From the NCBI GenBank assembly GCA_016783665.1, contig JADHWC010000003.1, positions 1,959 through 65,958 on the forward strand: a stretch of 64,000 nucleotides of DNA. Reading direction: 5' to 3'. The position numbers were made by a program, and so were the translations under genes. Origin of the DNA: Fidelibacterota bacterium. GTDB taxonomy: Bacteria > Fidelibacterota > UBA2242. This document shows, one piece after another, positions 10,090 through 63,987 of this stretch. Under the pieces are notes generated by a model. The model was not told where the DNA came from. It worked only from the letters and a program-made list of their open reading frames with translations, and searched no databases. Position 1 is the stretch's first letter; every line of letters begins with the position of its first letter.

Positions 10090-10221
10090 TGGATAATTCC
10101 TTATATAATTTGCATAATTATTGAAAAGCGCATTGAGATGTTACGAATATCATGCCAAAATTTTTAAACGTCATATTGTCAGATATTATTTCCGGAATAC
10201 CATAAAACCTAACCTGGATAA

Positions 10222-11170: not shown

Positions 11171-11182
11171 GGAGATAGGTCA

Positions 11183-14939: not shown

Positions 14940-17888
14940 TTACACTTTCTCTGAATAATCCTCAAACAACACTCTTTTCACATACTGATTCCGTTTGGGC
15001 TCAGTGAGCTTTTTGTAAAAACCCAAACTATCATCCACCAATCCTTGTAGTAATTTGTCAAATACCTTGTTGAACATAAATCTTTTATTGGATTCTGTGT
15101 TATCACCAAGATGAACTTTCCGTAGTTCCTTATCCTCATTCAACCGGGTTTGTATTTTTTCCAAATTCACTTTGTCATCGTCGTTCAAATCACTACCAAA
15201 GTTCTCATTTAGGACTTGTATGATATGGGATAGTAAATCTTTGAGTTCTTCGGGTGGAGATTCACCCACCCCGGTTGATATAGGTTGTAACTCCCCATCC
15301 TCATACATCAGGGAAATCGGATAGCTATGTTTCTTCTCAATCCTGAAATACTCCAAATCCACATAGGAAAAAACATCTGCCAATCTATCTCTTGTTCTCC
15401 TGGGGAGTTTCCTGTTCAGGAATCGCAGGAAGATATACAGTTTTTCAAGCTTTATATCTTTGAAAGTGATGATTTGAGAAATGTATCCGTACAGTCTAAT
15501 AAAACTCTGAATCTGATGACGGAAATCTTCCCTTTCTTCTTCCTCCAACCTCTTCCAATCTTCTACCACATAGTCCAAAATGGGTTGTAGTTCTTCATCG
15601 GGTATTCTGTCATCGTAGAACTTCTCTATCAACTCATTTACTGTTTCATCCCGGAATAGATTGTATTTCTTTATTTCTTGTTCAATGGAATACAGTTTGT
15701 TGGGGTCGGTTTCCTCTACAAGTAGAGTCCCTTGATAGTATGGTTGGAATGAATCCTGAATGATTTCCGGTTTATTCACAAAGTCCAATACAAGAGTGTC
15801 AGTCTTACCTGTCATCGTTCTGTTCAACCTGCTCAAAGTCTGAACGCACTGGAGTCCTTGAAGTCGTTTATCTACATACATTGTATGAAGTAACGGTTCG
15901 TCAAATCCTGTTTGAAACTTGTTACAAACAATCAGGATTCTATACTGCGGGTCTTTGAAGTTCTCCTGGGTCAATCTTTCAGGGAAACCGTTCAATGATG
16001 GCTCTGTATATTCCTTGTGAGTATCCTTATCATACACCGTTCCACTAAATCCAACCAGGACTTTGAATGGAAATTCCATTTCTTTTAACTGCTTATCAAA
16101 TTCAAGTTTGTATTTGACACAGTGAAGTCTTGAGCGGGTCACCACCATTCCGCGACTCTTGCCGCTTATTTTTAGGGAGCTATGGTTCAGGAAGTGTTCT
16201 AAAATGATTTTGGTTTTTTCAGAGATGGTATGCGGATGAATATCTACATATTTCACCAACATCTTTTTTACACGACTTTCGGGCAGTTCCTTATCCTCCT
16301 CAATCTTTTTATTTAGACGGAAATATCGCTCATAAGTGGTGTAATTCTGTAAAACATCAAGAGTAAAATTTTCTGAAATACTCTGTCTCATTGAATACAA
16401 ATCAAAAGAAACGAACTGTCCGTCCTCGTTCTTTCTGCCAAAGATTTCAAATGTTTTATTCTTCGGTGTTCCACTAAAACCGAAATAGGAAATATGAGCT
16501 TGTCTTCCCCTTGAAATAATTTCATCTAATATCAGTTTATCCACTTCGGTAAGGTCATCCCAATCCTCACCTTCCTGGAACTCATCCAATACAGATTTGG
16601 ACAGAGATTTTTTCAGGTGTTTGGATGTTTCTCCACTTTGAGATGAATGAACTTCATCGATGATAACGCCGAACTTCTTACTTTTCAGTCTGGATATGGA
16701 ATCTGATATAACAGGGAATTTCTGAACTGTGGTAATGATGATGGATTTCCCCAATTCAAGGTATTCTTTCAACTGTTGGGAATTGACATCCACAGGATTC
16801 ACTACACCTTTGGTTTGTTCTAACTGTTTAACGGTATTCCGTATTTGTTTGTCTAAAACCTTTCTGTCTGTAACTACAATTACAGAATCAAACATACCTT
16901 CCGTGTCTGCGGGAGTTCTGTAAAGAGAAGTCAATAGATGAGACAACCAACCAATAGATAAGGATTTACCACTTCCTGTGCTGTGTTGTATCAGATAATT
17001 ATTTCCAACACCTTCTTCAACTACAGATTTCTTCAAGCTCCTGATGACATTCAATTGATGGAATCGGGGGAAAATCAGAAGTTCTTTTTTCTTATCAACC
17101 ACTTTCCCAAGCTTTGAATCATACACCTTCTCTTTTTCTTCACGGATATGAACAAAGTTCTCTATCAAATCCAACATACTGTTGGGATGTAGAATATCCT
17201 CCCACAGATAATGGGTTTTATGTCCTTTAGGATTGACAGGATTTTCAATGTCTTTGTTGTAAGGAAGAAACCGTGTCTTACCACCCATCAACCGTGTCGT
17301 CATTGACACTTTTTCATTCCCTACAGAAAAATACACAAGATTCCGTTTGAATCTGAACAACGGTTCTTTGGGATCGCGGTCATACTTCCATTGTTTCTCA
17401 CCGTCGATATGGTTCTGTCCCGTGAGTGTGTTTTTCAGTTCCATCATCACGATTGGGATTCCATCGATGAAGATTCCCATATCAATAGAGTTCTCATTTT
17501 TCAGAGAGTATTTCAGTTGTCGGATGACGGTAAAACGATTCTGTTTGTATAAATCTTTATGTTCAGGATTCAGCCCGCTCCTGGGCTGGAAATATACCAG
17601 GTGAAAATCACAGCCCCTGTCCTTGACGCCATTCCGTAAGACATCGATAACCCCTCTGTTTTCAATTTCTGTGGATACTCGTTTTATCAGTTTGATTTCT
17701 GTTTCAGAACCATATTGTAATTCAAGTTTTTCAAGGGTTTTAGCCTGGGTTTCCTGAATGAATTCAATCAGTTGGGCAGGAATAAGACAGAGAGTTTTAT
17801 CATATATGGATGGGTCTGATGAAGAATAACCACTACTGACAAGATGTTCTTCAATGTGTTCTTCAAAGTCTTGTTCAAGGTAATTCAT
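14940..17888 (-). CDS. hsdR: Type I restriction enzyme R subunit HsdR
   Basis: 982 aa with an N-terminal PD-(D/E)xK nuclease motif (IDGIPIVMMELK), SF2 helicase motif I (HSTGSGKS) and motif II (DEVH); lies in an hsdM/hsdS context. Confidence 0.85.
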   Translation of the reverse strand: MNYLEQDFEEHIEEHLVSSGYSSSDPSIYDKTLCLIPAQLIEFIQETQAKTLEKLELQYGSETEIKLIKRVSTEIENRGVIDVLRNGVKDRGCDFHLVYFQPRSGLNPEHKDLYKQNRFTVIRQLKYSLKNENSIDMGIFIDGIPIVMMELKNTLTGQNHIDGEKQWKYDRDPKEPLFRFKRNLVYFSVGNEKVSMTTRLMGGKTRFLPYNKDIENPVNPKGHKTHYLWEDILHPNSMLDLIENFVHIREEKEKVYDSKLGKVVDKKKELLIFPRFHQLNVIRSLKKSVVEEGVGNNYLIQHSTGSGKSLSIGWLSHLLTSLYRTPADTEGMFDSVIVVTDRKVLDKQIRNTVKQLEQTKGVVNPVDVNSQQLKEYLELGKSIIITTVQKFPVISDSISRLKSKKFGVIIDEVHSSQSGETSKHLKKSLSKSVLDEFQEGEDWDDLTEVDKLILDEIISRGRQAHISYFGFSGTPKNKTFEIFGRKNEDGQFVSFDLYSMRQSISENFTLDVLQNYTTYERYFRLNKKIEEDKELPESRVKKMLVKYVDIHPHTISEKTKIILEHFLNHSSLKISGKSRGMVVTRSRLHCVKYKLEFDKQLKEMEFPFKVLVGFSGTVYDKDTHKEYTEPSLNGFPERLTQENFKDPQYRILIVCNKFQTGFDEPLLHTMYVDKRLQGLQCVQTLSRLNRTMTGKTDTLVLDFVNKPEIIQDSFQPYYQGTLLVEETDPNKLYSIEQEIKKYNLFRDETVNELIEKFYDDRIPDEELQPILDYVVEDWKRLEEEEREDFRHQIQSFIRLYGYISQIITFKDIKLEKLYIFLRFLNRKLPRRTRDRLADVFSYVDLEYFRIEKKHSYPISLMYEDGELQPISTGVGESPPEELKDLLSHIIQVLNENFGSDLNDDDKVNLEKIQTRLNEDKELRKVHLGDNTESNKRFMFNKVFDKLLQGLVDDSLGFYKKLTEPKRNQYVKRVLFEDYSEKV

Positions 17889-18089
17889 TTTTCCAATTCT
17901 TTTCTAAAGTTTGTCTAATTTAGTAAAGAAACTGCGTGATTCAAGTGATAATACATAATTCGAATAACTCCTTGTTATAGCGATAGATAGATGTATTCAT
18001 ATCCTGCATTTCAATCTTATTTGCTATCAATTCAACACCCTTCTTTACTAAAACTTTACTAATTCTTTACTAAAATCCATTTTCTACCA

Positions 18090-18665
18090 CGTAACCCACG
18101 AATTTATTCGTGGGTGATACAATAATGTCTAAACCAAACCGATTCATCGGTTTATCTCCAGATTATGCAACTTCATGAATTGTTCATATTCCTCTTTGAA
18201 GGTCATTTTACGATGATGCTCTTCTTGCGTTCGGATGTATCGTTCGACTTTTCCCACATCAGATTCACTAACAGAAAACGCTCCATAGCCAACCTGCCAA
18301 CTGAATTTTAATTGTACTAAATCCTCCTGATTAATCCAATGAGACGTTTCCCCTTTGATAGATTTCATTACTTGAGCAATTGAGACCTCTCTGGAAAGTA
18401 AAAATAATTGATGCACATGGTCACTTGTCCCATTGATAATTAGAACCTTACAATCCATTTCCTCCAATTTCTCGTATAAATGGGTATGTACATCTTTACG
18501 GATAGCATTAACAAGCAATGGTCTCCGATCTTTAGTTCCAAAGATGCCGTGTATCCATAATTTTGTTAGTGAGTGACTCATAACTTTCCTTTGTATAAAC
18601 CGTTAAAACGGTTTCCTTTTTGTTGTTGTTCATGCTCCCACGATTGAAATCGTGGGTTTCTAACA
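18090..18665 (-). mobile_element. IS200/IS605-family (possibly RAYT-like) element inserted between hsdR and hsdS
   Basis: A Y1/HuH tnpA gene is flanked on each side by a pair of hairpins in mirror arrangement. Left side: cccacgaatttattcgtggg then aaccgattcatcggtt; right side: aaccgttaaaacggtt then cccacgattgaaatcgtggg. Confidence 0.7.
18144..18581 (-). CDS. tnpA: IS200/IS605-family tyrosine (HuH, Y1) transposase TnpA
   Basis: 145 aa with HuH motif (SDHVHQLF) and a C-terminal catalytic Tyr region (ERYIRTQ); N-terminal WIHGIFGTKDRRPLL resembles IS200 TnpA and RAYT. Confidence 0.8.
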   Translation of the reverse strand: MSHSLTKLWIHGIFGTKDRRPLLVNAIRKDVHTHLYEKLEEMDCKVLIINGTSDHVHQLFLLSREVSIAQVMKSIKGETSHWINQEDLVQLKFSWQVGYGAFSVSESDVGKVERYIRTQEEHHRKMTFKEEYEQFMKLHNLEINR

Positions 18666-18721
18666 ATTGTTTATCATTCAGTCCTCGATTGTGATTGTGG
18701 ATTGCTTCGTATGGTTCGCAT

Positions 18722-20158
18722 TCATCTTGATTGTGTCTCTCCTTCAACCAAGACGGTTGAGTTATACCCCCTCACATCAATTTTCCCCGTCACCACTTCG
18801 GAAATAAGTGATTGACGGTATTCTTTTAAAAGTTCAATTCGTTGGGTTTCTTTTTCAATGGTAGTGTCAATCTTTTGGGTTTGTTCATCAAGATATTCAA
18901 CGATTTGGTGTTGTTCAGTATTGGTTGGTTTTGGATAAACCATATTTGAATATTTTTCACCATTCACATTTTCAATAGTTGAAGTGATTGTGTTTAGACG
19001 AATCCAATATAAATAAAAATCAGTTTTCGTTGTGTAAAAGACAAATTTTGAAGAAAAATAATCCCCAAAATTGAATCTTACTAAATAACCACCTGAAGAA
19101 TACATACCATCTTGAAGATGTAAATATGATTTGCCTACAGTATGTCCACTTCTACATAACAACAAATCATATTTATCCAATAGAAACTCTACATCCACAT
19201 CTGATTCAATTAAATATTTTCCATTATCGGGATTCAATTCTCCACAATCATCAAGGTCTGTAATCCTTATAAACCTTACACCATTTTCAGTATATCTGTC
19301 ACTACTAATATTGAGACCATAACGAACTGGTATTAGTGTATCGTATTTAAGTTTTGAAATAGTCCAACCACTCGGAATCTCCCCAATCCACTTAACACCA
19401 CTATCTTTCATCTCCACATTCCTGCCCGCCCTCTCGTCCGTTCGGGAGCCAGCCTGCTCACGGAGTGCTGGCAGGCAGGCGGGGGGGTTCAGCCCTTTGG
19501 TCACACAATGATTGATAAGGGCAGTTCGTTTTTCTTTCAGGAGTTCGATCTTCTTTTCTGTTTTTTCAATCAGTTCGTCAATCTTTTGGGTTTTGTGGTC
19601 AAGGAAGGAGACGATTTGTATTTGTTCTCTTTTTGGAGGAATCAAGAATTGAAAAGTAGAAATCTCTTCTTGACTCAACATTGGGATTGTTGTAATTGAA
19701 CCAATCAAATTAATTTGAGTAAAAATGTGATTTGATTGTAAATAGTACCAAAGAAATATTGGATTTTCTTTTATTTGATTAACCAAAACAAGACTCGGAT
19801 TGATTGTCATTTCACCATAATCTTCATCAATGAATACTACTTTCCCTAAACTTCCCCTTTGACTAATAATCATATCACCTTTTTTCACCATAATCTCGGG
19901 GGACTCATAATATTTATCCCAACTCAAAAAGTCAGGATTTGATAGGTCTATTTTTTGGGATGAGTTGATATGTTTCCCTCCAAGAACTAAACATCCTTCC
20001 CCTTCATCTACAAAATCAGTTTTCTTATATCCTTTGTATCCAATCCTACCCTGTAAATTTACAATATATCCAAGTTTTTTTCTTGCCCACCCACTCGGTA
20101 TCTCTCCAATCCACTCAACTTCACTATCTTTATATGACGGATACGGTCTCATTATCAA
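18722..20158 (-). CDS. hsdS: Type I restriction-modification specificity subunit HsdS (two target-recognition domains)
   Basis: 478 aa with duplicated EVEWIGEIPSGW / GVKWIGEIPSGW TRD starts, a central coiled-coil conserved region, and C-terminal ...LISEVVTGKIDVR. Confidence 0.85.
   Translation of the reverse strand: MIMRPYPSYKDSEVEWIGEIPSGWARKKLGYIVNLQGRIGYKGYKKTDFVDEGEGCLVLGGKHINSSQKIDLSNPDFLSWDKYYESPEIMVKKGDMIISQRGSLGKVVFIDEDYGEMTINPSLVLVNQIKENPIFLWYYLQSNHIFTQINLIGSITTIPMLSQEEISTFQFLIPPKREQIQIVSFLDHKTQKIDELIEKTEKKIELLKEKRTALINHCVTKGLNPPACLPALREQAGSRTDERAGRNVEMKDSGVKWIGEIPSGWTISKLKYDTLIPVRYGLNISSDRYTENGVRFIRITDLDDCGELNPDNGKYLIESDVDVEFLLDKYDLLLCRSGHTVGKSYLHLQDGMYSSGGYLVRFNFGDYFSSKFVFYTTKTDFYLYWIRLNTITSTIENVNGEKYSNMVYPKPTNTEQHQIVEYLDEQTQKIDTTIEKETQRIELLKEYRQSLISEVVTGKIDVRGYNSTVLVEGETQSR
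19419..19497. repeat. GC-rich palindromic element E2 inserted in-frame in the hsdS inter-TRD linker
   Basis: A ~78 bp stretch of ~70% GC inside a ~33% GC gene. It translates to ...PPACLPALREQAGSRTDERAGRNV... exactly between the central conserved helix (TKGLNP) and TRD2 (EMKDSGVKWIGEIPSGW). Its reverse complement is similar to E1 at 10222-10287. Confidence 0.7.
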
Positions 20159-20239
20159 TTCTTTTTACATAGGTTAATAACGCAAAAAATTACACATACT
20201 TTTATATCTATAGGTAAATAATCCAATTTTCTACCCATA

Positions 20240-21304
20240 CTATTCTTCGCCTGCAAATAGTGTAAATAATGGTAAGTTGACATAATAGTTACTATTTTTG
20301 ATTTTCATTTTTTTTACAAAGCCATCTTCTGATAACTGATTGAGATAACCGGATGCCGTTTTTCTTGACACCCTTAATTCATGTTCAACAAACTCTATTT
20401 TTGTATAAGGATGTTTAAACAAGTTGTTTATCAAATCCTGGCTATAAAATTTATATTGATTTCTTATTCGATGTTTATAATCCATCATCAACCGCTTAAT
20501 CTCAGAAATAATTATGACGGTGTGTTGCGATGTTTCTGCAATGCCATTTAACATCCAGATAATCCATGATTCCCAATCATTCTCCGTGCGAACACCTTGC
20601 AACAATTGATAATAATCCGTTTTGTTCTCAATAATGTATTTGCTGAGATAAAGAACCGGAATATCAAGTAGTTTTTTTTGTAGTAGATACAGAATATTGA
20701 TAATTCGCCCGGTCCTGCCATTACCATCATAAAAAGGATGAATACTTTCAAACTGATAGTGAATGATTGCCATTTTAATCAACGGATCAATATCGTGCAG
20801 TGAATCTTCATTGATATAATTTTCAAGATTGCTCATTAACGCAACAATTTCATTTGCATCCTGTGGCGGTTTGTAGATGGTTTCTCCAGCGCTGTTTTGC
20901 AATACCGTGCCAGGTATTCTTCGAAAACCTTGCTTTATCGGCTCAATTATTTTTTGAATTTCCAAAATATAATTATTTGTCAAAAGATGGTGCTTTTTGA
21001 CCAGTTTAAATCCTTTTTTCAAAGCATTTGCATAATTTTTCACCTCTTTTGCCGCTAGATTATTGAAACTATCGTCCGCATCCGCACGGTAAAGATCATC
21101 TTGAGTAGTTATTATATTTTCAATTGCAGAACTATCTTTTGCTTCTTGTAAAGCAAGTGTATTTATAAGAATTTCTTCATTAGGAATTGTTTTGGATTCT
21201 CCTTTCAACTCCCCCAACGCCCGACTGGCTTTGTTTAAATTTTCATAAATATCCGATGTTTTGACATTTATATCCAGAGGCAACTTTTGCAATGATATAT
21301 TCAT
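20240..21304 (-). CDS. fic: Fic/DOC family protein (adenylyltransferase-type Fic)
   Basis: 354 aa with Fic motif HPFYDGNGRTGR; overlaps the hsdM stop by 4 nt and lies between hsdM and hsdS. Confidence 0.85.
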   Translation of the reverse strand: MNISLQKLPLDINVKTSDIYENLNKASRALGELKGESKTIPNEEILINTLALQEAKDSSAIENIITTQDDLYRADADDSFNNLAAKEVKNYANALKKGFKLVKKHHLLTNNYILEIQKIIEPIKQGFRRIPGTVLQNSAGETIYKPPQDANEIVALMSNLENYINEDSLHDIDPLIKMAIIHYQFESIHPFYDGNGRTGRIINILYLLQKKLLDIPVLYLSKYIIENKTDYYQLLQGVRTENDWESWIIWMLNGIAETSQHTVIIISEIKRLMMDYKHRIRNQYKFYSQDLINNLFKHPYTKIEFVEHELRVSRKTASGYLNQLSEDGFVKKMKIKNSNYYVNLPLFTLFAGEE

Positions 21305-23007
21305 AATATCTCCTTCATCAATCCTTCTGTTTCCTCCTCCAATTTCAACAAATCCCGGGTGATTTCTTCCAATGACCGAAGTGGTTTATATTTGTAAAAA
21401 TACTTGGTGAAGTTGATTTCGTAGCCCACTTTGTCTTTGTCTCTATCCATCCAGGAACCCTTCAAATGGGGTATAACTTCCCGTTGGTAGTATTCCTCAA
21501 TATCATCCAACAAGGGAACACGTTCATAATCTCTTTTTGATGTGTCAGGTTTCGGATTTCCCTGCTTATCCGTTACTATTTCACCGTTTTCCATCATCGG
21601 TTGTTCTATGGTGACTTTGGTATAACCGAAAAACTCATTGGGATAAATTTTACTGTATTCACTCTCCGCAAAGTTCAGATAGTGTTCCAATAAGGTATTT
21701 CGGTTTTCCTCGGTGATTTCTTTCCGTTTATTCCCCAGTGATTTCTTCATCTGTTTGAAGAAAGCAGAACCGTTGATGAGTTGGACTTTACCTTTTCGTC
21801 TTTCTGATTTCCTGTTATTTACAATCCATATATAAGTGGAAATACCTGTGTTGAAGAACAGTTGGTCGGGAAGTGATACAATACACTCCAGCCAATCATT
21901 TTCAATAATCCATTTACGGATTTCAGATTCACCGCTGCCACTGTCCCCCGTGAATAATGGAGAACCGTTAAACACTATCCCAATCCGGCTTCTTTTTGAT
22001 TCCATCTTGGAAATCATATGTTGAAGGAATAACAAAGAACCATCAGAAGTTCGTGGTGTTCCGACGGAGAATCTTCCATAGGGATTCTGTCCCTCATTTT
22101 CAATGAACTCTTTTTCAGATTTCCAGCTAACACCAAATGGGGGATTTGTAATCATATAGTCATATTTTTTTCCTTGAAAATTGTCCTCTGATAGAGATGA
22201 ACCCAATCGGATGTTGTCAGGGTCTTCATCGGTAATCAACATATCGGACTTACAGATTGAATAGGTTTGGGGATTCAGTTCTTGTCCTAACAGACGAAGT
22301 TTCACTTTGTCGTTGATATTCTGATGGATATATTCTTTTCCGATAGTCAACATTCCGCCAGTTCCACAACAAGGGTCAAAAATGCTTCTGACTTTGCCTT
22401 CACCTTGTAAATCATCTTTATCCTCTGAAAAGACAAGGGAAACCAACAGACGAACTACATCTCTTGGGGTATAGTGTTCTCCACTTGTTTCATTGGACAT
22501 TTCAGAGAACTTCCGTAACAATTCTTCAAAGATAAGTCCCATATCACGGTTGGAAATCTTATCAGGGTGTAAATCTATTTCGGTGAGTTTGTCTATAAGA
22601 ATAAACAGACGGTTATTCTTGTTCAGTTTCTCAACCGGTTTCTCCAACTGAAAATTCTCAATAATCTCGACAACATTGTCACTGAATCCACCCAGGTAAT
22701 TCTGAAAGTTCATATATACATTCTGTGGGTCGGATTTCAGTCTTTTCAAATCATACTTGGAATGATTGAAAAAGCTGGTGTTGATTCGGTTTAGAATGAT
22801 TGGGGTGGGGTCATCTACTTTGGTTCTGTATTCTTCGTAGATGTTGAACACATCGTCTTTGTGAGGTTCTAAAACACAATCCAATCTCCGTAGAACGGTG
22901 AACGGTAGAATCACATCGCCGTATTCGTGTGGTTTGAATAATCCCCGAAGGACATCATCACAGACATTCCAGATGAAGGATGATATTTGGTTATAGTTAT
23001 TTGACAT
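21301..23007 (-). CDS. hsdM: Type I restriction-modification N6-adenine DNA methyltransferase HsdM
   Basis: 568 aa with SAM-binding FDPCCGTGGML and catalytic NPPFG (ITNPPFGVSW). Confidence 0.9.
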   Translation of the reverse strand: MSNNYNQISSFIWNVCDDVLRGLFKPHEYGDVILPFTVLRRLDCVLEPHKDDVFNIYEEYRTKVDDPTPIILNRINTSFFNHSKYDLKRLKSDPQNVYMNFQNYLGGFSDNVVEIIENFQLEKPVEKLNKNNRLFILIDKLTEIDLHPDKISNRDMGLIFEELLRKFSEMSNETSGEHYTPRDVVRLLVSLVFSEDKDDLQGEGKVRSIFDPCCGTGGMLTIGKEYIHQNINDKVKLRLLGQELNPQTYSICKSDMLITDEDPDNIRLGSSLSEDNFQGKKYDYMITNPPFGVSWKSEKEFIENEGQNPYGRFSVGTPRTSDGSLLFLQHMISKMESKRSRIGIVFNGSPLFTGDSGSGESEIRKWIIENDWLECIVSLPDQLFFNTGISTYIWIVNNRKSERRKGKVQLINGSAFFKQMKKSLGNKRKEITEENRNTLLEHYLNFAESEYSKIYPNEFFGYTKVTIEQPMMENGEIVTDKQGNPKPDTSKRDYERVPLLDDIEEYYQREVIPHLKGSWMDRDKDKVGYEINFTKYFYKYKPLRSLEEITRDLLKLEEETEGLMKEIL

Positions 23008-23090: not shown

Positions 23091-24752
23091 TTAAATTTCT
23101 TCTATTCTATCTTTATTTATCCATTGTAAAAATGTTGGATATTTTTGCACTGATGAAATTAGGTATACTTTTTTCTTTGTTCTAGTTAGTGCAACAAGAA
23201 AATTACATATATCTCGATCAGTATTTTTAGTTTTGTCATTATCTTTTATAAAATAACGATCATCGAAATGAGTAATAAATACTAGATCTCCTGAAAGACC
23301 TTTTGAGCTTTGTATTGTTGTAGTTTTAATCGGTATTTTTCTGATAGCAGGAATACCTACGGGTTGAAAAACATTATTTATTTTTTCACGTGCGAATTCA
23401 TTTAATATGGCATAAGGATCTATGTTAATTTTTTTCATAATGTCAATAAATTCATCATTATCAATAGGCTTTTTATCTTTTATCTTTTTTAGTATTTTTA
23501 AAATACTTTTTACTTCTTTTTTAAAATCCTTATCAACTATTTCATAAATCATTTTACTAGAATTTGAATATGTAGCACTTAATAAAGTACTAAAATCATC
23601 ATTCGATAATAGATATTTTGAAACTATACGCCAACCGAGGTTATCATTGATATTGTTAAGTAGAAGTTTAAAACCATCTAAAAGGGATACTTCTTTTTCA
23701 TCCTTTATCTTACACTCAATATTTTGCATCCCTTTTTTCTTCAATGCCTCGGCAATAAAATTAGATTGTTTTCTATAAGGAGAAATAATTAATACTGAAA
23801 ATTTATTTCTTAAATCTTTTGCCATTTCGCTTATCTTTTTTTCAATAAACCAAGGTATTTGACTTGCGAATATCTGTTTGTATCCAATAGTTGAATATTT
23901 TTCACTTTCTTTATCTTTTTCTTTTTCGTGAAAATATTGAAATGGTTTATTAATACGTTGATCAAGAAAATCAAATTTTTTAGCAGCAATTATAATGTCA
24001 TTTGTTGCATCGACGATAACTTGTGTACACCGAGCACAAAATGGTAATTTGAATGATTCATAATCGGGTACATCATCTCCAAACCTTTCTCGTATATGTC
24101 GAGTACTAGCATTTTTAAATTCATAAAGCGCCTGATCATCATCACCTGCTAATAATATCGAACTTTTTTCAGATAGTAAATCGATAAGGGATACTTCAAG
24201 TTTATTAAAATCCTGAAATTCATCTATTAAAATTTGATCATATGATGGTATTCTTTCTCTATATTTTTCAAAATACTTTACTAATGCATAGATAATACTT
24301 GAATAACCATAGTAATTATAATAATCGACTCGCTTTTTATAAAACTGAAGTAATTCATCATTATCTTTTCTATTATGAAATAGATATTCGAAATCAACTT
24401 CTTTTCTAAGAATATATTGGGTATCCTCTTTTATAACATTTGTAAGTTTCGGAAAAATATTAATACTTCTACTCTTGACAGCACTAAGCGTACTTCGGGC
24501 GAAACTGTGAAGTGTTTTGACGTCTGACATACCATATAATTCTAAGGATAAATCTTCAACAAGAGAATTAATAAAGGTTAGTGTCAATGAATTTTTTTTA
24601 CCCTCAAGTATTTTTCTAAATAGAAAGGTCTTCCCTGTACCTGGTCCGGCAACAACAACCTTTTTGAATGATTTTGAATTTAATATCGCATCAACATGTT
24701 TTTTCCTATCATTTATTGCTTTGGAATAAACTGATCCGTCTAGCTCTGACAT
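23091..24752 (-). CDS. UvrD/Rep-like superfamily-1 DNA helicase (stand-alone, very AT-rich gene)
   Basis: 553 aa with Walker A (AGPGTGKTF), motif II-like (LIDEFQDFN), GDDDQALYEF, and C-terminal motif VI-like (VALTRTKKKVYL). Confidence 0.75.
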   Translation of the reverse strand: MSELDGSVYSKAINDRKKHVDAILNSKSFKKVVVAGPGTGKTFLFRKILEGKKNSLTLTFINSLVEDLSLELYGMSDVKTLHSFARSTLSAVKSRSINIFPKLTNVIKEDTQYILRKEVDFEYLFHNRKDNDELLQFYKKRVDYYNYYGYSSIIYALVKYFEKYRERIPSYDQILIDEFQDFNKLEVSLIDLLSEKSSILLAGDDDQALYEFKNASTRHIRERFGDDVPDYESFKLPFCARCTQVIVDATNDIIIAAKKFDFLDQRINKPFQYFHEKEKDKESEKYSTIGYKQIFASQIPWFIEKKISEMAKDLRNKFSVLIISPYRKQSNFIAEALKKKGMQNIECKIKDEKEVSLLDGFKLLLNNINDNLGWRIVSKYLLSNDDFSTLLSATYSNSSKMIYEIVDKDFKKEVKSILKILKKIKDKKPIDNDEFIDIMKKINIDPYAILNEFAREKINNVFQPVGIPAIRKIPIKTTTIQSSKGLSGDLVFITHFDDRYFIKDNDKTKNTDRDICNFLVALTRTKKKVYLISSVQKYPTFLQWINKDRIEEI

Positions 24753-30837: not shown

Positions 30838-31954
30838 TCGGACGGCGAATTTAAGATTTTAATCCATAAAAGCAAACTCATTTTCGAGGACTTTTACTTC
30901 ATATATCGTGCAAATATTGCGTTTATCGTTCCGGGAAGATCTCCCTTGTACCAGAACCATCCCCTTTCTCGTCTCAATGACCCTGCGTTGATACGGAGCT
31001 TTTTTCAGTGTCTCCTACTGGAACGAAGACACGAGTGGTGTAACACAAACACTCTTGTTTGTGAGCAATTATTTTACCGCGACCAATCTGCTGAGTAATA
31101 TCGTTCCGAAGCACCTGCCCGACCTGTCAGGCGGGGAACCCCGGAACGAGAAATGCGAGAATCCTCACTAATCTGGCTACGGGGTTGTACTCCGTAGCCT
31201 TCATACGTTCCGTAGCAAAGCCACGGAACGAGATTCAACGAGACGCGCTCCCAATCTCTGGCTACAGTGCCCCCCCCCGCCTGAAGGTCGGACAGGCTGC
31301 TCTTTAGCCTATTTAACCGCCCGGAGCGATGCGCTCCGCATACTGTCATTCCTACATTATTTTGTACTTTATCATTGCATCTGACATGAATTTGTCCTGT
31401 TATATTTCATCATGGCTGGGAACCTCGAAAAACGTCACCGCACAACTCTCTGGGAAATGCTCAGAGATTTGCCGAATCTGGCAAAAGTGAACGGTTCCAG
31501 TCATTGGCACGTTTTTCCGAACCATCAGAAAAGACGGCTGAGAATAAAGCAAAACACTAATCATCCGGTCATTGTAAATACCCGTGGACCGCCTGTGATC
31601 GAAGCATCCTTCCGAAGGTTCGGAACCTTCGGAAGGTTTAAAGCAACGTAACGAGATGTATTATTTTACTCTGGCTGCGGGATTGTACTCCGCAGCCATT
31701 TTACACTCTTGTTTGTGAGCGGTAATCTGGCTACAGGGTAGCCAGGTAATAACGCAAACCCGTCTTCTATGAAACGAAGTGGAATCAAACGGGTTTCGCG
31801 GATTTATGGGGAAACATTCTGAGTTTATGACGATGTGCTTTAGTTTTGCTTCGGGGGCGCTGAAACCCATACCGAAAGTTTCTTCGGATTACGCGAAAGA
31901 TTCAAGTAATATCGTGAAGTATGTTAGATAACTTTTGCAAAGTTATCCTTAAAC
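30838..31954. repeat. ~1.1 kb non-coding region dense in GC-rich palindromic/REP-like repeats (possible structured ncRNA locus)
   Basis: Repeated units aatctggctac (x4) and the hairpin ggctacggggttgtactccgtagcc (31178; variant at 31671) occur with stems cgttccgt...acggaacg, two copies of acactcttgtttgtgagc, and a 29-nt near-perfect palindrome ccttccgaaggttcggaaccttcggaagg (31598-31626). The only ORFs are short and GC-skewed. Confidence 0.6.
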
Positions 31955-37668: not shown

Positions 37669-37689
37669 TCTTTTTCAATAAAACAATAG

Positions 37690-37773
37690 TGCCGAAGACG
37701 GGACTCGAACCCGTACAGGCTAACGCCCACATGGCCCTCAACCATGCGTGTCTACCAGTTCCACCACCTCGGC
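37690..37773 (-). tRNA. tRNA-Leu (anticodon GAG)
   Basis: Minus-strand RNA GCCGAGGUGGUGGAACUGGUAGACACGCAUGGUUGAGGGCCAUG...ACGGGUUCGAGUCCCGUCUUCGGCA: 7-bp acceptor, T-loop UUCGAGU, long variable arm, anticodon loop UUGAGGG. Confidence 0.9.
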
Positions 37774-49326: not shown

Positions 49327-51720
49327 TCATTTTCTAAATTTATAGGAAATCGAAATAAACCCATTCCGCGTCGCTCCGGGCCAATAATAGGCATAATAAC
49401 CGCCCCATTCATAGCCATACCCGTATGTTGAATACAATTTATTCAGGATATTATTCACCTTACAATTAACTTCAATATTCTTAAATACATACCGGATGCC
49501 GCCGTCCAGCAGCCAAAAAGCGTCATTGGTTCCGAGGTTTTGTTTGTCGAGATACTGTTTCCCCACATAGCGCATCGCAATGAAAAACGTCAGCTGATCA
49601 ATCGGATTCAATCGCAGACTGCCGTTAAATAATATCGATGGAACATTGGGAATGACCTTATCCTTACAGCTACCGCTCTGAAAAATATGCCGGCTTATGC
49701 TGCTGTTCAGGTTCACTGCCCAGAATGATGACGGCTGATAATTCAGTTCCAGTTCAATTCCCTGGTGCAATGTCGCGTCGGAATGATAATAGATGTACTC
49801 TCCCTCCTGTTCAACATCGATGTTTTTCAACTGCTCGTTTTTATAATTAATCCTATACAGGTTCAGGTCGAACTCGAATTGGCGGCTTCGATAACTGCCG
49901 CCTAATTCATAATCGTTTATCAATTCAGCTGACGCCTTCCGGGGAGTGCTCCATACATCGTCGGCTTCGATGATCTGATCGTCTGCCGGTTCGCGCTGGG
50001 CTTTCCCGTAATTCGCAAAGACGGATAACTCATCGGTAAATGAATATATCGCTCCAAAGCGTGGATTCACGAATCTCCACACCGCATCCAATTGATACCC
50101 GACGGCATGTCCGATCTTCTTCTGATCCATATTCCAGTGAATGTATTGATACTGCAGATCGGCAATCAGTTTCAATTTTTCAAGCGGTTCAAAAGCAAAG
50201 TGAGCGAAACCTGTTGTGATCAATTTTTCACCAATATAGTTATAATACCGATACCAGTCTTCGGAAATTAGAGACGATAAATCAGGATCGGAGAAATCAG
50301 CGATTTCACCGTAGTGATCACCGGTATAGAAACGAATCTCACCGCCGATATCCAGTCGATATTTATTACGAATATATGTCAGTGTCGGAATCATCCCGAA
50401 ATAGTTATTGACGATCCATTTCCTACGAGTAAAGCCCAATTCGCGGCTACTATATAAATCCCACGGGTAATCCGGATAATAATTATCAAGATTATAGGAA
50501 AACAGGAAATCTCTGAAATCGTCCCGGTCATCAGTTCCAATGTCATTGGTAAGATCATAACCGGATGACTTTTCGGTCTCGTAATACCCCTCGCCCATCA
50601 CAAGGTAAGCGACATTACTGAAGTGAAGACGATCGCTGATCCGCCAGAAGCTGTTCAAAGAATAGACCTGTTGTAAAAAGTCATCGATATAAGATTGATA
50701 ACCAGCGCGCCGCTTTTTACGGTCATTGATATCATCAGCAGAAACGCCGTCCCACATCAGATGACTTCGTTCATAGCCTATCAATGCCCTGAATTGATGA
50801 GTGAATTTAACACCGTCGTATTCAATCCCGACAGATCCGGCTTTCTGATCGGTATCATGAAAATCACGATAGCCTTCGGATTTAATCTGTGAAAGCCTTG
50901 CCGATAGTTTTACTCTTTTATTGAAAAGCGCTCCACTAGCGGCTTTTAGATGGATTTTCGACGTATTATACGAACCCGCGCCCACATTCAGTGACAATTC
51001 CGGTTTATCGGATCCAATCGATGTAATCACATTTATCGATCCTCCAAAAGCCGAAGCGCCGTAAAGGCTGTTGCCAATCCCGCGCTGTATCTGAACATCT
51101 TCGGCATCACTGAGAACATCGCCATGATCTACCCAATAGACCTGATGACTTTCATTATCGTTCAATGGCACATTATTCATCATCACGGCGATGCGGCTCT
51201 GATCGAATCCCCTAATCTGGACATAGGAATAACCGGTTCCGTTGCCGCTTTCACTGTAGGAATAAACACCCGGTTCCATAGCAAGTATCATCGGTAAATC
51301 TTCGACAGTGTAGCGGTTTTGAATTTCCTCAGCAGTAAGTTCCGAAAAGGCGACCGGTGTTTTTCCTTTCACGGCTCGTGTGGCAGTCACAAAGACATCT
51401 TTGCCCGTTAATACTTCCGGAACAAGATATATATCGCCGACAGTACTTTTTTTTACTAAAAATGTCGTATCCCTGAACGCAATGTGGGAAACGGTTATTT
51501 TACAGGGCAATATTGTGTAATTCAGCACAAAATCGCCGGACTCATTGGAGTAAGTTCCCTCACCGGTTTCAAGAAATATATTGGCATAATCAATCGGTTT
51601 TCCCGTTGACCGGGATACTATTTTACCGGTTATGAGATTTTCATTGCTGAATCCCACACTTGTGAAAAAAAGCGTAATTAGAATAAAAATGAAAAATGCG
51701 GAGAATGTTTTTTGGGTCAT
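49327..51720 (-). CDS. TonB-dependent outer-membrane receptor with N-terminal carboxypeptidase-regulatory-like domain
   Basis: 797 aa with a signal peptide, a CarboxypepD_reg-like beta-sandwich (GKIVSRSTGKPIDYANIF...SGDFVL), plug domain and a long beta-barrel. Confidence 0.8.
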   Translation of the reverse strand: MTQKTFSAFFIFILITLFFTSVGFSNENLITGKIVSRSTGKPIDYANIFLETGEGTYSNESGDFVLNYTILPCKITVSHIAFRDTTFLVKKSTVGDIYLVPEVLTGKDVFVTATRAVKGKTPVAFSELTAEEIQNRYTVEDLPMILAMEPGVYSYSESGNGTGYSYVQIRGFDQSRIAVMMNNVPLNDNESHQVYWVDHGDVLSDAEDVQIQRGIGNSLYGASAFGGSINVITSIGSDKPELSLNVGAGSYNTSKIHLKAASGALFNKRVKLSARLSQIKSEGYRDFHDTDQKAGSVGIEYDGVKFTHQFRALIGYERSHLMWDGVSADDINDRKKRRAGYQSYIDDFLQQVYSLNSFWRISDRLHFSNVAYLVMGEGYYETEKSSGYDLTNDIGTDDRDDFRDFLFSYNLDNYYPDYPWDLYSSRELGFTRRKWIVNNYFGMIPTLTYIRNKYRLDIGGEIRFYTGDHYGEIADFSDPDLSSLISEDWYRYYNYIGEKLITTGFAHFAFEPLEKLKLIADLQYQYIHWNMDQKKIGHAVGYQLDAVWRFVNPRFGAIYSFTDELSVFANYGKAQREPADDQIIEADDVWSTPRKASAELINDYELGGSYRSRQFEFDLNLYRINYKNEQLKNIDVEQEGEYIYYHSDATLHQGIELELNYQPSSFWAVNLNSSISRHIFQSGSCKDKVIPNVPSILFNGSLRLNPIDQLTFFIAMRYVGKQYLDKQNLGTNDAFWLLDGGIRYVFKNIEVNCKVNNILNKLYSTYGYGYEWGGYYAYYWPGATRNGFISISYKFRK

Positions 51721-51886
51721 GATAAGCTCCCTTCGCTGGTATTATCCAGATCAGGTTCAAAGGGTATTTTCTCAGCCGTTCACGTGTTAGTGAAAAGCAC
51801 CCCCAGAACTTCAGTTTTTAAATATCACAATTACAATTTAATAACTATTTATTACTAAAATCAAATAGTTTTCATAACAATATTAG

Positions 51887-51979
51887 CGGGAACGCCTGGG
51901 AGTCGAACCCAGCTCCCCGATTGTATCGGGGACAGCGATTTTGAAGACCGCGACACCCACCGGGGTTGCATTCATTCCC
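51887..51979 (-). tRNA. selC: Probable selenocysteine tRNA (tRNA-Sec, anticodon UCA)
   Basis: Minus-strand RNA GGGAAUGAAUGCAACCCCGGUGGGUGUCGCGGUCUUCAAAAUCGCUGUCCCCGAUACAAUCGGGGAGCUGGGUUCGACUCCCAGGCGUUCCCG, ~93 nt. It has a long variable arm (CCCCGAU-ACA-AUCGGGG), T-loop UUCGACU, anticodon loop CUUCAAA, discriminator G, and an extended acceptor stem with one G.U pair. Confidence 0.72.
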
Positions 51980-52796
51980 ATTGATTCCTTTGAATAACGA
52001 TATAATCAATATTATGCAATGCTTTGAGACGATTCCCCGCTTCTACGGCGTCTGCACGGGAATCATATCTTCCCACTCTGACGGATAACAGGTCCTGGCG
52101 ACCACCTTTGATTTTCTGAACGTAGGAATCATATCCGTAGGACTTCAACCTGTTTTTCAATATCAACGCATTCTGGGAATTTCCAAATGCTCCGACCTGA
52201 AGAGCATATTTTGGTTTGGAAACTTGTCGTTCAGGCGGTTTCACTCGTTCGACTTGTTTTACTTTTGTCGCGAATTGGTCTCCGGTAACATATGATGGCA
52301 CAGATTGATAATCATAAAACTGCAGGTCAAGATCGGGATATTTTTCCAGATAATGAGCATAATAATAATCAACGGAATCCTTTTTATTCATTACGTTGAA
52401 ACTGCACATTAACATATACACACAATTCCCGACATTTTCGCTGTCCGGATATTTCGAAATTAACTGTTTAGAGTATGTAATTGTCTTTTTGTATAAGCCT
52501 TTTGTATAAAGATACTCAATAATTTTTGTCAGGGCGTTATCGGCTTTTTTACTGTTCGGATACTGACTTAAGACATCTTTATAAATTAACAAAGCCTTAT
52601 CGCCTTCCGGTTCCACTAGAGCAGAAAGATACAAAACATCCGGATTATTGGGATAGTTGCTAATCAGCTGTGGTATCGCCAGTTTGACCAAATCAGCCTT
52701 ATCCTGATTTACATAATCATAATACTTCGTCAAATCCTGAGAAACCAGAATAAATGGAATAAGCAAGCAGATAATTATTGCGATTACATTTTTCAT
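51972..52796 (-). CDS. SPOR-domain protein with TPR-like N-terminal region
   Basis: C-terminal SPOR peptidoglycan-binding domain (YALQVGAFGNSQNA..L..RLK..GY.....K......RV..G...A); start set at internal Met MKNVIAII (TM/signal). Confidence 0.7.
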   Translation of the reverse strand: MKNVIAIIICLLIPFILVSQDLTKYYDYVNQDKADLVKLAIPQLISNYPNNPDVLYLSALVEPEGDKALLIYKDVLSQYPNSKKADNALTKIIEYLYTKGLYKKTITYSKQLISKYPDSENVGNCVYMLMCSFNVMNKKDSVDYYYAHYLEKYPDLDLQFYDYQSVPSYVTGDQFATKVKQVERVKPPERQVSKPKYALQVGAFGNSQNALILKNRLKSYGYDSYVQKIKGGRQDLLSVRVGRYDSRADAVEAGNRLKALHNIDYIVIQRNQWE

Positions 52797-54284: not shown

Positions 54285-55583
54285 TTATTGAATTTTGCCA
54301 AATAAACTTACGCCTGCTGCATCGATAATTTGTACATTGACAATATTCCCAATGTCGGCGTTTCCTCCCTTTAAAATTACCAGTTTATTTGTATCAGTTC
54401 TACCAATTTTTTCATTACTATCTTTTTTACTGATGCCATCAACCAGGACAGATTGAACGGTTCCGATCAAGGCTCTGTTCTTTTGAAGAGTATGAACTTT
54501 CTGTTTTTCAATAACGGTATTAAGCCGCTCTGATTTCTCTTTTCCCGGAATGTCGTCTGGTAATTTAACGGCTTGTGTATTTGGTCTTGGTGAGTATTTA
54601 AACATATAAGCATTGTCAAATACCACCTGATCCATAACATAAAGCGTATCATTAAAATCATCCTGCGTTTCTCCGGGAAAACCGACAATGATATCAGTCG
54701 TAATACCACAACCCGGCATATATTTCCTGATTTTATCAACGACATTGAGATATTTTTCCTGTGTATATGTCCGGTTCATCGATTTTAATATTTTCGTTGA
54801 TCCGGCTTGAAGTGGAAGATGGACGTGTTTACAGATATTTTCATGTTCCCGCATGACTTCCAGCATCGCATCATCGATATCTTCAGGATGAGGTGATGTA
54901 AATCGTATCCGTTTAACACCGGGGATTTCAGCAACAGTAAGAAGCAAGTCCGGAAACCGGTTTTCTTCATAACAGTACGAATTAACATTTTGACCTAAAA
55001 GAGTGACTTCAACGTATCCGTCATTAACTGCCTGCCTCACTTCTTCAACAATACTTTTAACAGAGCGGCTTCTTTCTCTTCCCCGAGTGAAAGGGACAAT
55101 ACAATAGGAACAGAATTTATCACAACCCCGCATTATCGATATCCAGGCATTTACCCGGGTGTTCCTAAACGGCGTTAATCCATCGTAAACTTCCTGTTTT
55201 GATAAATGGACGTCAACAAACGGTAATTCATGTTTGTTTAGTAATTCCGGAATCTGTCTGTATGTGTCAGGCCCAAGAACCAGATCGATGAAAGGTTTCT
55301 CTTCTAATATTTTTCCTTTATCACGCTGGGCTACACAACCTACCAGTCCGAGTAATAAATCCGGATTTTGTTTTTTTAAATGTTTAAACTGTGATAGACG
55401 TGCTATCGCACGATTATCGGCGCCATGGCGTACACTACAAGTATTAACGAGAATAATATCGGCTTCTTCCGGTAAATATGTTGAAGTGTAATTCACTCTT
55501 TCCAGCAGACCTGCCATAATTTCCGAATCTGCTTCATTCATCTGACAACCATAGGTTTCTATATAATACTTCTTAGAATTCAT
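54285..55583 (-). CDS. miaB: tRNA-2-methylthio-N6-dimethylallyladenosine synthase MiaB (radical-SAM methylthiotransferase)
   Basis: N-terminal YIETYGCQMNEADSE, radical-SAM CDKFCSYC, and a C-terminal TRAM domain. Confidence 0.9.
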   Translation of the reverse strand: MNSKKYYIETYGCQMNEADSEIMAGLLERVNYTSTYLPEEADIILVNTCSVRHGADNRAIARLSQFKHLKKQNPDLLLGLVGCVAQRDKGKILEEKPFIDLVLGPDTYRQIPELLNKHELPFVDVHLSKQEVYDGLTPFRNTRVNAWISIMRGCDKFCSYCIVPFTRGRERSRSVKSIVEEVRQAVNDGYVEVTLLGQNVNSYCYEENRFPDLLLTVAEIPGVKRIRFTSPHPEDIDDAMLEVMREHENICKHVHLPLQAGSTKILKSMNRTYTQEKYLNVVDKIRKYMPGCGITTDIIVGFPGETQDDFNDTLYVMDQVVFDNAYMFKYSPRPNTQAVKLPDDIPGKEKSERLNTVIEKQKVHTLQKNRALIGTVQSVLVDGISKKDSNEKIGRTDTNKLVILKGGNADIGNIVNVQIIDAAGVSLFGKIQ

Positions 55584-60074: not shown

Positions 60075-60350
60075 AGTTACTTCTATTATTAACGTCAAGT
60101 CAACTGTTTTTCTCAGTATCTATTTTAATAATTAAAACGATTATTCTTGTGTATTATTTCAAAAAAGCGCTGTGTTACATACAAAGGTTGTGCCATTAAT
60201 TGTGCGGGACATTTAGTCATGCCGCTTTTAATATTTCATCAAGCAATGTGACAATTGGGCATCATAGACCTATAGATAATCCAACTAATATCGATTCATT
60301 CAGGACAGCGATATTCAACATTTTAATGAAAGTTATCATATGAAGGTTTG

Positions 60351-60423
60351 TACCCCCAACAGGACTCGAACCTGTGCTTCCGGCTCCGGAGGCCGGCGCT
60401 CTATCCAACTGAGCTATGGGGGC
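60351..60423 (-). tRNA. tRNA-Arg (anticodon CCG)
   Basis: Minus-strand RNA GCCCCCAUAGCUCAGUUGGAUAGAGCGCCGGCCUCCGGAGCCGGAAGCACAGGUUCGAGUCCUGUUGGGGGUA: canonical D-arm, anticodon loop CUCCGGA, T-loop UUCGAGU. Confidence 0.88.
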
Positions 60424-61688: not shown

Positions 61689-62681
61689 TTAAAAATCAGC
61701 AGTACCAAAGAACTTCCCATCATACCGAACGATCAGCCCGTCACAGCCAGGTAAGGAATTTAAAATCTCAAGTCCTTTTGATACACCCGCAACAAAAATA
61801 CCGGTCGCTAATGCATCTGCCATTTCTGCGGTAGGCGCCAGAATTGTCACAGACTGACAGGAGTCAGCCGGTAAACCTGTTTTTGGATTGATAAGATGGT
61901 GATAGCGTTTGCCCTTATAAATAAAGTATTTCTGGTAATCACCTGAAGTAATAACTGCGCCGCTGTCAACTTCAATAATTTTCAGCATTTTTTTCAAATC
62001 CCTGGGATCCTGGATACCAACTCTCCATTTCTTACCATCGCCCCTTGGAAGCGCCCTGAGATCGCCGCCGGCATTCACCAATGCGCCTTTTATACCTTTG
62101 TCTTTTAGAATTTCAATCGCCTGGTCAACACCATATCCTTTTGCAATTCCACCTGTCGTCAACATCGTTTTGGGAGAGGCTGACATTAATACTCCACACT
62201 CCAAATCCACGGTTAGTGACCGGTAATCAACATAAGGAAGTAATGCATTTATTTCCCCTAATGCCGGTGGCACTGGTGATTCAGTCTTAAAATTATACAG
62301 TGGTAAAATAATCCCAACCGTCATATCGAAACAACCATCTGTCAATTCTGAGATTTTCAAGCCTCTCTGTATTAACCGAAGAACTTCATTCGGCATCGGC
62401 ACATTATTCGAAGTCCTGTGGCTAAACTCATACAGCGGACTTTCCGGGTTGCCTTCATAGAACAACGTTCCAATGCGGCTAATCTCTTCAAAAGCAGCAT
62501 CTATCGATTCATAAGCATGTTTTTCAGAGTAGTCCAATATAGTAATTTCAATCACCGTGCCCATTGCAAACCGGATTACCTGATAGGATTGTAACTTCGA
62601 CTTCGGAGAGCAGACGGAAAAAAGAACAAGAATCAGGAGTAAAATGAAAATCAGTGATTGAATAACATAATGTTTTTTCAT
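61689..62681 (-). CDS. apbE: FAD:protein FMN transferase ApbE
   Basis: 330 aa with signal peptide, IAKGYGVD and TSGDY motifs typical of ApbE flavin transferases; next to Rnf genes. Confidence 0.88.
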   Translation of the reverse strand: MKKHYVIQSLIFILLLILVLFSVCSPKSKLQSYQVIRFAMGTVIEITILDYSEKHAYESIDAAFEEISRIGTLFYEGNPESPLYEFSHRTSNNVPMPNEVLRLIQRGLKISELTDGCFDMTVGIILPLYNFKTESPVPPALGEINALLPYVDYRSLTVDLECGVLMSASPKTMLTTGGIAKGYGVDQAIEILKDKGIKGALVNAGGDLRALPRGDGKKWRVGIQDPRDLKKMLKIIEVDSGAVITSGDYQKYFIYKGKRYHHLINPKTGLPADSCQSVTILAPTAEMADALATGIFVAGVSKGLEILNSLPGCDGLIVRYDGKFFGTADF

Positions 62682-62727
62682 AATACTACATCTTAAATAT
62701 CTTTTATGTATTTATAAAATATATCAC

Positions 62728-63168
62728 TTATTTACAGATTTCTTTCATCGAAAAGACTGAGAAACCACCGGCGGCTTTTCTTTTAGCCCAATAGCGGGAT
62801 ATTAATCCGGCAATTGCAAGAACAGCTAATCCAATGCCGAACTGAAGAATATCAGATGGAATGCCAAGAAAAGAATCAGAAATCAGGTTATTGGCTACGA
62901 CCACAGCAAGCAGGAAACTCAATAGCGGTAATCCGTATTGCATAAATGCCAGCTTTAGTTGGTTTTTATCTGATTGTTCAATCAGTATCCGGTCTCCGAT
63001 CTGTGTATTAAGTGTATTGTTAAGGTATAATATTCGTTTACCCGAATCGCCGGGTCGGCAGACCATACGGGCGCCACAGCTGTGGCAATTATCGCTCTCC
63101 GCTAGTTCAATGCTGGCTCTATCACCTTTAATTTCGACTACTTTACCGATTTCAAAATCCTGATCCAA
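62728..63168 (-). CDS. rseC: RseC/MucC-family protein (SoxR-reducing-system component, common Rnf-operon accessory)
   Basis: 146 aa with an N-terminal Cys cluster (CHSCGARMVC) and two C-terminal TM helices. Confidence 0.7.
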   Translation of the reverse strand: MDQDFEIGKVVEIKGDRASIELAESDNCHSCGARMVCRPGDSGKRILYLNNTLNTQIGDRILIEQSDKNQLKLAFMQYGLPLLSFLLAVVVANNLISDSFLGIPSDILQFGIGLAVLAIAGLISRYWAKRKAAGGFSVFSMKEICK

Positions 63169-63987
63169 TTATGCCTCGTCCGCCTCTCCAACAATTACGA
63201 TGCATTTCGTTGGACATTTTTCTGTCGGTAATACAAGTTCTTTAGTGTATCTATCGTGATCAACGATTACCAAATTATTTTCAACTGTAAAACCGACGCC
63301 GTCAACCGCCTTTTCACAGATTTTACAGGCGATACAAGCAGCTTTACAAACCGCCCTGGAGTTTTTTCCGGAATCTTCATTTCGGCAAAGAACAAAAACA
63401 TGATGGCTTATTGGATGCATCTCGATAACATTTCGGGGACAGGCTTCGACACAATTGCCACAGCCTGTACATTTAACACGATCCACTACGGGAATGCCCT
63501 TGTCATTCATATAAATAGCGTCAAAAGGACATACAGCCACACAGTCACCATAACCAATACAACCGTAATTACAGGCTCGTTCACCACCACTCACGAAAGT
63601 TGCACCAATGCAGGATTGAATACCCTCATAATCCGCTTTTTTCTTTACGACGCCGTCGCCACCCTGGCACATCACAATTGCAACTTTTCTTTCACCTGTT
63701 TCAACATCCACTCCGAGAATTTGGGCTATTTTTTCTGCCGCTTCCGCACCACAAACAGGACAATCACTCAGTTGAGATTTTTCACCGGCGAGATTCTCTG
63801 CAAAATTAGCGCAGCCTCCATATCCGCAACTCCCGCAATTTGCTCCCGGTAATAAATCATTGATCAGTTCTATACGAGGATCCTCCTCAACATGCAATTT
63901 TTTATTGGCTAAAGTAATTAATATTGAGAAAAACAGACCAATTCCGCCCATACTTAAAACCGCATATACAAGGAATGTATAATTCAT
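63169..63987 (-). CDS. rnfB: Rnf electron-transport complex subunit B (RnfB)
   Basis: 272 aa with an N-terminal TM helix, a CGSCGYGGC...CPVCG cluster, and several CxxCxxCxxxCP 4Fe-4S ferredoxin motifs. Confidence 0.85.
   Translation of the reverse strand: MNYTFLVYAVLSMGGIGLFFSILITLANKKLHVEEDPRIELINDLLPGANCGSCGYGGCANFAENLAGEKSQLSDCPVCGAEAAEKIAQILGVDVETGERKVAIVMCQGGDGVVKKKADYEGIQSCIGATFVSGGERACNYGCIGYGDCVAVCPFDAIYMNDKGIPVVDRVKCTGCGNCVEACPRNVIEMHPISHHVFVLCRNEDSGKNSRAVCKAACIACKICEKAVDGVGFTVENNLVIVDHDRYTKELVLPTEKCPTKCIVIVGEADEA

Follow-up and report, generated by a model that had tools for sequence, protein, structure and literature searches.

The 93-nt gene at 51887..51979 on the minus strand is selC, the gene of the selenocysteine-specific tRNA (tRNA-Sec), of an uncultured FCB-group bacterium nearest to Marinimicrobia (Neomarinimicrobiota), an identification made with high confidence. 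The window referred to throughout is the whole 64-kb stretch of DNA that was analysed. It is shown here by the sequence and fold of the RNA, by its score on the family model, and by its conservation, with covariation, among relatives. The gene is of an already known kind, and its annotation is correct but routine, being what standard tRNA finders report.

Identification of the tRNA-Sec gene

ARAGORN calls a tRNA-SeC at 51886..51979(-), with the anticodon tca at position 36. Infernal cmscan against Rfam matches the tRNA-Sec family RF01852 end to end at 51888..51979(-) with 57.4 bits and E = 5.5e-9, where the E-value refers to the 64-kb window searched against 4227 Rfam families. The gathering score of RF01852 is 47, and selC lies only about 10 bits over that threshold. 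RF01852 is the top model of the tRNA clan at this place, the generic tRNA model scoring lower, and R1, a covariance model made from the clade's own sequences, gives the window selC 103.8 bits. The E-value together with the covariation in homologues excludes a chance match to tRNA-Sec. The minimum-free-energy fold of the RNA is a cloverleaf with a long variable arm, with a modest z-score of -2.4. Free-energy z-scores near that value are usual for tRNAs; it is the covariance model and the covariation, rather than the fold energy, that carry the statistical weight.

A preliminary description of this DNA had proposed a tRNA-like gene of about 93 nt at 51887-51979, which is exact once the discriminator G is counted. 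It gave no strand; the gene is on the minus strand, where the claimed anticodon loop CUUCAAA with its UCA anticodon can be read directly, and where the claimed discriminator G and long hairpin variable arm are both present, the latter with an 8-bp stem. The tRNA-Sec identity that it drew from these features is borne out by both checks on the interval, the SeC call of ARAGORN and an RF01852 score above the curated threshold, and the interval is not scored as a type-II tRNA of the Ser or Leu kind. The extended acceptor stem that it also claimed is present with 8 residues per strand, of which only 7 form standard pairs.

Table 1. Coordinates of selC, its structural elements, and neighboring or other RNA and protein genes in the window
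Feature	Coordinates	Strand	Remarks
tRNA-Sec gene (selC)	51887..51979	-	G1 = 51979, discriminator G73 = 51887; 93 nt
Acceptor stem, 5' strand	51972..51979	-	nt 1-8, GGGAAUGA; pairs 1-7 standard, pair 8 A:G
Linker between acceptor 5' strand and D-arm		-	AU, 2 nt
D-arm	51953..51969	-	GCA[A]CCC-CGGU-GGGUGU; 6-bp stem, bulged A on 5' strand, 4-nt loop CGGU
Unpaired C between D-arm and anticodon arm		-	
Anticodon arm	51935..51951	-	GCGGU-CUUCAAA-AUCGC; 5-bp stem plus C:U on top
Anticodon UCA, reads UGA	51942..51944	-	ARAGORN; + strand TGA there
Unpaired UG between anticodon arm and variable arm		-	
Variable arm	51913..51934	-	UCCCCGAU-ACA-AUCGGGGA; 8-bp stem, 3-nt loop (minimum-free-energy fold)
Unpaired G between variable arm and T-arm		-	
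T-arm	51896..51912	-	CUGGG-UUCGACU-CCCAG; 5-bp stem, loop UUCGACU
Acceptor stem, 3' strand	51888..51895	-	GCGUUCCC; 8 nt between T-stem and G73
Discriminator G (G73)	51887	-	
SPOR/TPR-domain protein gene	51972..52796 (or to 52871)	-	Pfam SPOR 1.3e-13; 274 aa in public assemblies
MtaB/MiaB-type radical-SAM methylthiotransferase	54285-55583	-	
TPP riboswitch	51709-51814	-	RF00059, 60.4 bits
TonB-dependent receptor with CarboxypepD_reg domain	49327-51720	-	Directly downstream of TPP riboswitch
tRNA-Leu(GAG)	37689-37773	-	Ordinary tRNA gene
tRNA-Arg(CCG)	60350-60423	-	Ordinary tRNA gene

Structure compared with known tRNA-Sec

The archetypes of bacterial tRNA-Sec (selC; RF01852) are those of E. 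coli and Aquifex aeolicus. Like bacterial tRNA-Sec, the window gene has UCA in a CUUCAAA loop, G73, a long variable arm and a score over the family threshold, and it also has the 8 residues per acceptor strand, the 5-bp T-stem, and the 6-bp D-stem closed by a 4-nt YGGU loop. Unlike the archetype, its 8th acceptor pair is A:G; its D-stem carries a bulged A on the 5' strand, which the cmscan alignment treats as an insert relative to RF01852; the would-be sixth pair, at the top of the anticodon stem, is C:U; and the 3' CCA is not encoded, CUA coming after G73.

In the acceptor/T domain, each acceptor strand has 8 residues and the T-stem has 5 bp, with A:G as the 8th acceptor pair. Bacterial tRNA-Sec with 12-bp acceptor/T domains, acceptor-stem bulges and the D-stem bulge 13a are on record, with the 7/5 form in Cloacimonetes, 12 bp plus a bulge in Epsilonproteobacteria, and bulge 13a in Clostridiales (PMC5330540). 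Unlike the Cloacimonetes 7/5 type, the window selC has 8 acceptor residues followed by a normal 2-nt linker, and hence its geometry is 8/5 with a non-canonical terminal pair, and not a true 7/5.

Conservation and covariation in relatives

An orthologous tRNA-SeC is found by ARAGORN directly 3' of the SPOR gene in the six closest GTDB species-representative genomes (L005-L010), four of which are labeled Ca. Neomarinimicrobiota and two 'uncultured bacterium', with MtaB identity of 53-61%. It lies about 2.3 kb downstream of MtaB in these genomes, after the block MtaB-LapA-LapB-SPOR, and each of the six scores 56-69 bits on RF01852. A metagenome scan adds four further contigs with the same synteny (L090, L109, L127 and L160), of which the JGI metagenome contig L127 has an MtaB of 75% identity. 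The order MtaB-LapA-LapB-SPOR-tRNA-Sec is thus present in at least 10 related contigs, from Marinimicrobia-like MAGs and metagenomes, over an MtaB identity range of 53-75%. In FCB genomes that are further removed but also carry this MtaB gene, ARAGORN finds no tRNA-SeC at that place.

In the alignment of the seven syntenic sequences, 93.3% of cells agree with the pairing of the 8/5 cloverleaf, and both sides have changed at 15 of the 32 pairs. None of 500 shuffles (0/500) matches the observed pairing and both-side changes, and sliding the partners by 1-3 columns leaves 38-53% paired. Compensatory changes are present in every stem: the D-arm pairs in 97.6% of cells with 4 of its 6 pairs covarying, the variable arm has both-side changes at 7 of 8 pairs, and the T-stem pairs in 100% of cells with 2 covarying pairs. 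The UCA anticodon and G73 are lost in no syntenic homologue. The irregular positions recur as well, the 8th acceptor pair being non-Watson-Crick in 7/7 sequences (A:G in five, G:A once, C:A once) and the C:U atop the anticodon stem being invariant in all 7.

Since the structure has been kept by compensatory changes while the proteins of the clade diverged to about 55% identity, the gene is under selection and not a relic. Conservation of this kind argues strongly against a pseudogene, a possibility that the preliminary description had allowed for: the same locus is occupied in the relatives by genes that score over the same 56-69 bits, with compensatory substitutions in every helix.

How unusual are the structural departures

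The scan of metagenomes used a search pattern consisting of the D-loop and anticodon arm only, and retrieved at least 120 contigs; among the first 40 loci checked, ARAGORN calls tRNA-SeC at 39. Covariance model R1 aligned 88 tRNA-Sec genes, 85 of them distinct, and across these 85 environmental bacterial genes 95.8% of cells pair under the same structure, while in the T-stem all 5 of the 5 pairs covary. This sample was chosen on the CUUCAAA/UCA motif, and the invariance of the anticodon in it is to be read accordingly. The bases of the C:U are likewise fixed by the pattern, and the set is uninformative on how frequent C:U is. The other two departures can be counted: among the environmental tRNA-Sec genes, 38 of 80 have a non-standard 8th acceptor pair, and 51 of 81 have an extra nucleotide in the D-stem.

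A new structural variant, defined by the 8th-pair mismatch together with the D-stem bulge, was considered and rejected, both traits occurring in about half of the bacterial sequences. On this comparison, the A:G 8th pair and the bulged A are best read as ordinary variation. It is a highly improbable proposal that the Marinimicrobia-like clade has a lineage-specific form of tRNA-Sec, marked by a purine-purine or C:A 8th pair, the D-stem bulge and the invariant C:U, that could alter the discrimination of the tRNA by SelB and EF-Tu. If that were true, the extreme case would be a UGA suppressor delivered by EF-Tu in a lineage with reduced Sec machinery.

Selenocysteine machinery

Pfam finds no SelA, SelB-winged-helix or AIRS (SelD) domain among the window ORFs of at least 120 aa that are not nested in larger genes, and the sole translational GTPase in that set is EF-G. 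A six-frame scan of the 64-kb window for genes interrupted by one TGA required 25 or more codons on either side and 120 or more overall. Its 32 candidates include none that is credible, all of them being antisense shadows, the ends of normal genes or read-through of low complexity. The genes of [FeFe]-hydrogenase type at 11183-14831 are ordinary ORFs and intact. Downstream of selC in the relatives L007, L009 and L010 no sel genes were found, the genes there encoding a histidine kinase, CotH, amylases, Ni-SOD, a DAO oxidoreductase and NusG. The literature on Marinimicrobia and selenocysteine gave incidental mentions only, and the only external hint of Sec machinery is the SelD listed, as an 'orphan' SelD, for SAR406 (Marinimicrobia) single-cell genomes (PMC5029168).

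These searches bear on whether the tRNA may have been retained after the lineage lost its Sec machinery, being now non-functional or on the way to a pseudogene. The empty result for sel and selenoprotein genes in the 64-kb window would fit such a history, as would the mismatches at the 8th pair of the acceptor stem and at the top of the anticodon stem and the listing of SelD as an orphan (PMC5029168). The orphan-SelD genomes are, however, incomplete single-cell assemblies, and the mismatches are conserved features rather than random decay, the one in the 8th pair being common in bacterial tRNA-Sec. A decaying gene would also be hard to reconcile with the same locus persisting in at least 10 contigs whose MtaB has diverged to 53-75% identity, with compensatory double changes maintaining every helix, and with an anticodon and a discriminator that are never lost. 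We therefore consider loss of function very unlikely.

Distinction from look-alike tRNAs

Some tRNAs of other identities resemble tRNA-Sec, and the gene could in principle be a selC*-type tRNA-Cys(UCA), an allo-tRNA or a class-II Ser opal suppressor, in which case UGA would be read as Cys or Ser via EF-Tu and without SelA or SelB. Such tRNAs are documented (PMC7609411, PMC5389517), and the window gene shares with selC* tRNA-Cys and allo-tRNAs a long acceptor stem, a long variable arm and an anticodon, UCA, that they sometimes have. Its 8th acceptor pair, if open, would moreover leave an acceptor/T helix of 12 standard pairs, like that of an ordinary tRNA.

Individual positions speak against each of these. 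What defines selC* tRNA-Cys is U73 together with a GCA (or UCA) anticodon (PMC7609411). The discriminator here is G, as it is in 81 of 81 of the aligned sequences, where the search pattern had left that position free, and this argues against a selC* identity. Allo-tRNAs are described as having a 12-bp acceptor/T domain in an 8/4 or 9/3 configuration (PMC5389517), and a T-stem of 5 covarying bp argues against that. Against all three stand the eight residues that separate the T-stem from G73, and the fact that the Sec model beat the general tRNA model. As for an opal suppressor, tRNA-Ser has a D-stem of 3-4 bp and a larger D-loop, and the 6-bp D-stem and 4-nt loop seen here do not fit it. A look-alike identity is in our estimate extremely improbable.

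Genomic surroundings

Upstream of selC on the same strand there is an operon-like block encoding an M23 peptidase, MtaB, LapA, a TPR/LapB-like protein and a TPR+SPOR protein. The SPOR gene is the last of the conserved MtaB-LapA-LapB-SPOR block and abuts selC. The preliminary description had it overlapping the tRNA by 8 nt at its stop codon, and that is so, the TGA at 51972-51974 falling inside nt 6-8 of the tRNA. In the relatives, a gap of 3-56 nt separates the SPOR stop from the tRNA-Sec, and the overlap is specific to the window genome; not being conserved, it counts as a local accident, not as a mechanism. It is probable that selC is co-transcribed with the SPOR gene, the one basis for this being the lack of spacing between them. 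A scan for promoters and terminators around selC gave nothing above shuffled expectation.

Downstream, a 72-nt AT-rich spacer is followed by a TPP riboswitch and then by a TonB-dependent receptor, which is by analogy probably a thiamine-regulated outer-membrane transporter; transporters so regulated are known in Bacteroidota. The order of tRNA-Sec, TPP riboswitch and receptor is also found in L005. In L127, a TonB-dependent receptor is likewise downstream of the tRNA-Sec.

The upstream block is common to the clade (L005-L010, L090, L109, L127, L160), and the downstream neighbors differ in almost every genome examined, among them TonB-dependent receptor, CotH/amylases, Ni-SOD and histidine kinase genes. 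With conserved genes on one side and varying genes on the other, selC is a synteny break-point, which is reminiscent of tRNA genes as hot spots of integration or rearrangement.

Public gene calls contain a spurious 30-aa ORF (MNATPVGVAVFKIAVPDTIGELGSTPRRSR), at 51886-51975(-) in the window and 8430-8522 in L001, that is the tRNA-Sec read as protein. Several metagenome assemblies, such as ENA ERZ24794679 NODE_1486, contain proteins identical to those of the window.

Other features of the window and of related contigs

The G+C content of the window is about 39%. Placement in the FCB group fits its content of GWxTD and Por_Secre_tail domains and of CarboxypepD_reg-type TonB-dependent receptors. 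A Type I restriction-modification system (HsdR, HsdS, HsdM) occupies 14940-23007(-), and a UvrD-like helicase (23091-24752) comes after it. Interrupting the system, or lying with it, are an IS200-type Y1 transposase (18144-18581) and, at 20240-21304, a Fic/DOC protein. The lower G+C in this region (0.32-0.36) suggests a mobile defence island.

At 10799-14831(+) there are genes for a response regulator and for a HydABC-like, possibly bifurcating, hydrogenase, namely a NuoE/NuoF-fusion along with the large subunit of an [FeFe]-hydrogenase, and at the window end, 61689-63987(-), there are ApbE, RseC and RnfB-like genes. The genes of these two regions contain no in-frame TGA. The hydrogenase together with the ApbE/RseC/RnfB-like genes points to an anaerobic, fermentative lifestyle.

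Between the EF-G and nitroreductase genes, the 1.1 kb at 30838-31954 lacks any ORF of more than 91 aa and gives no hit in Rfam at E<=1. This stretch contains a repeated hairpin element, TAATCTGGCTACGGGGTTGTACTCCGTAGCC, at 31169, at 31667 and in part at 31723. An 18-nt sequence, ACACTCTTGTTTGTGAGC, occurs in exact copies at 31049 and 31703, and 31608-31636 is a perfect palindrome of 14+14.

An unrelated metagenome contig (L149, Ga0129310_1001352) carries two tandem tRNA-Sec genes, at 9956-10049(-) and 10123-10216(-), about 170 nt apart, each scoring about 68 bits on the clade model.

Proposed function and significance

By analogy with the known system, charging, conversion and delivery of the tRNA would follow the established bacterial pathway. 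The selC transcript would probably read through from the abutting SPOR gene, to be trimmed by RNase P and 3' exonucleases, with CCA presumably added enzymatically. SerRS, recognizing G73 and the long variable arm, would charge the tRNA with serine, which SelA would turn into Sec with selenophosphate from SelD, and SelB would then bring Sec-tRNA-Sec to those UGA codons that precede a SECIS hairpin. The acceptor/T helix, with its 13 layers, would be expected together with the 6-bp D-stem to keep the tRNA off EF-Tu.

The value of the finding is practical and lies in annotation, selC being a standard part of a well-understood system that raises no new question here. From a tRNA-Sec so conserved and so constrained in structure, we infer with good foundation that the organism should make selenoproteins, with their genes elsewhere in its genome. 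This Marinimicrobia-like organism and the lineages of the at least 10 related contigs very probably use selenocysteine. Elsewhere in these genomes, TGA 'stops' may hence be Sec codons, and genes for redox enzymes that appear truncated merit re-examination.
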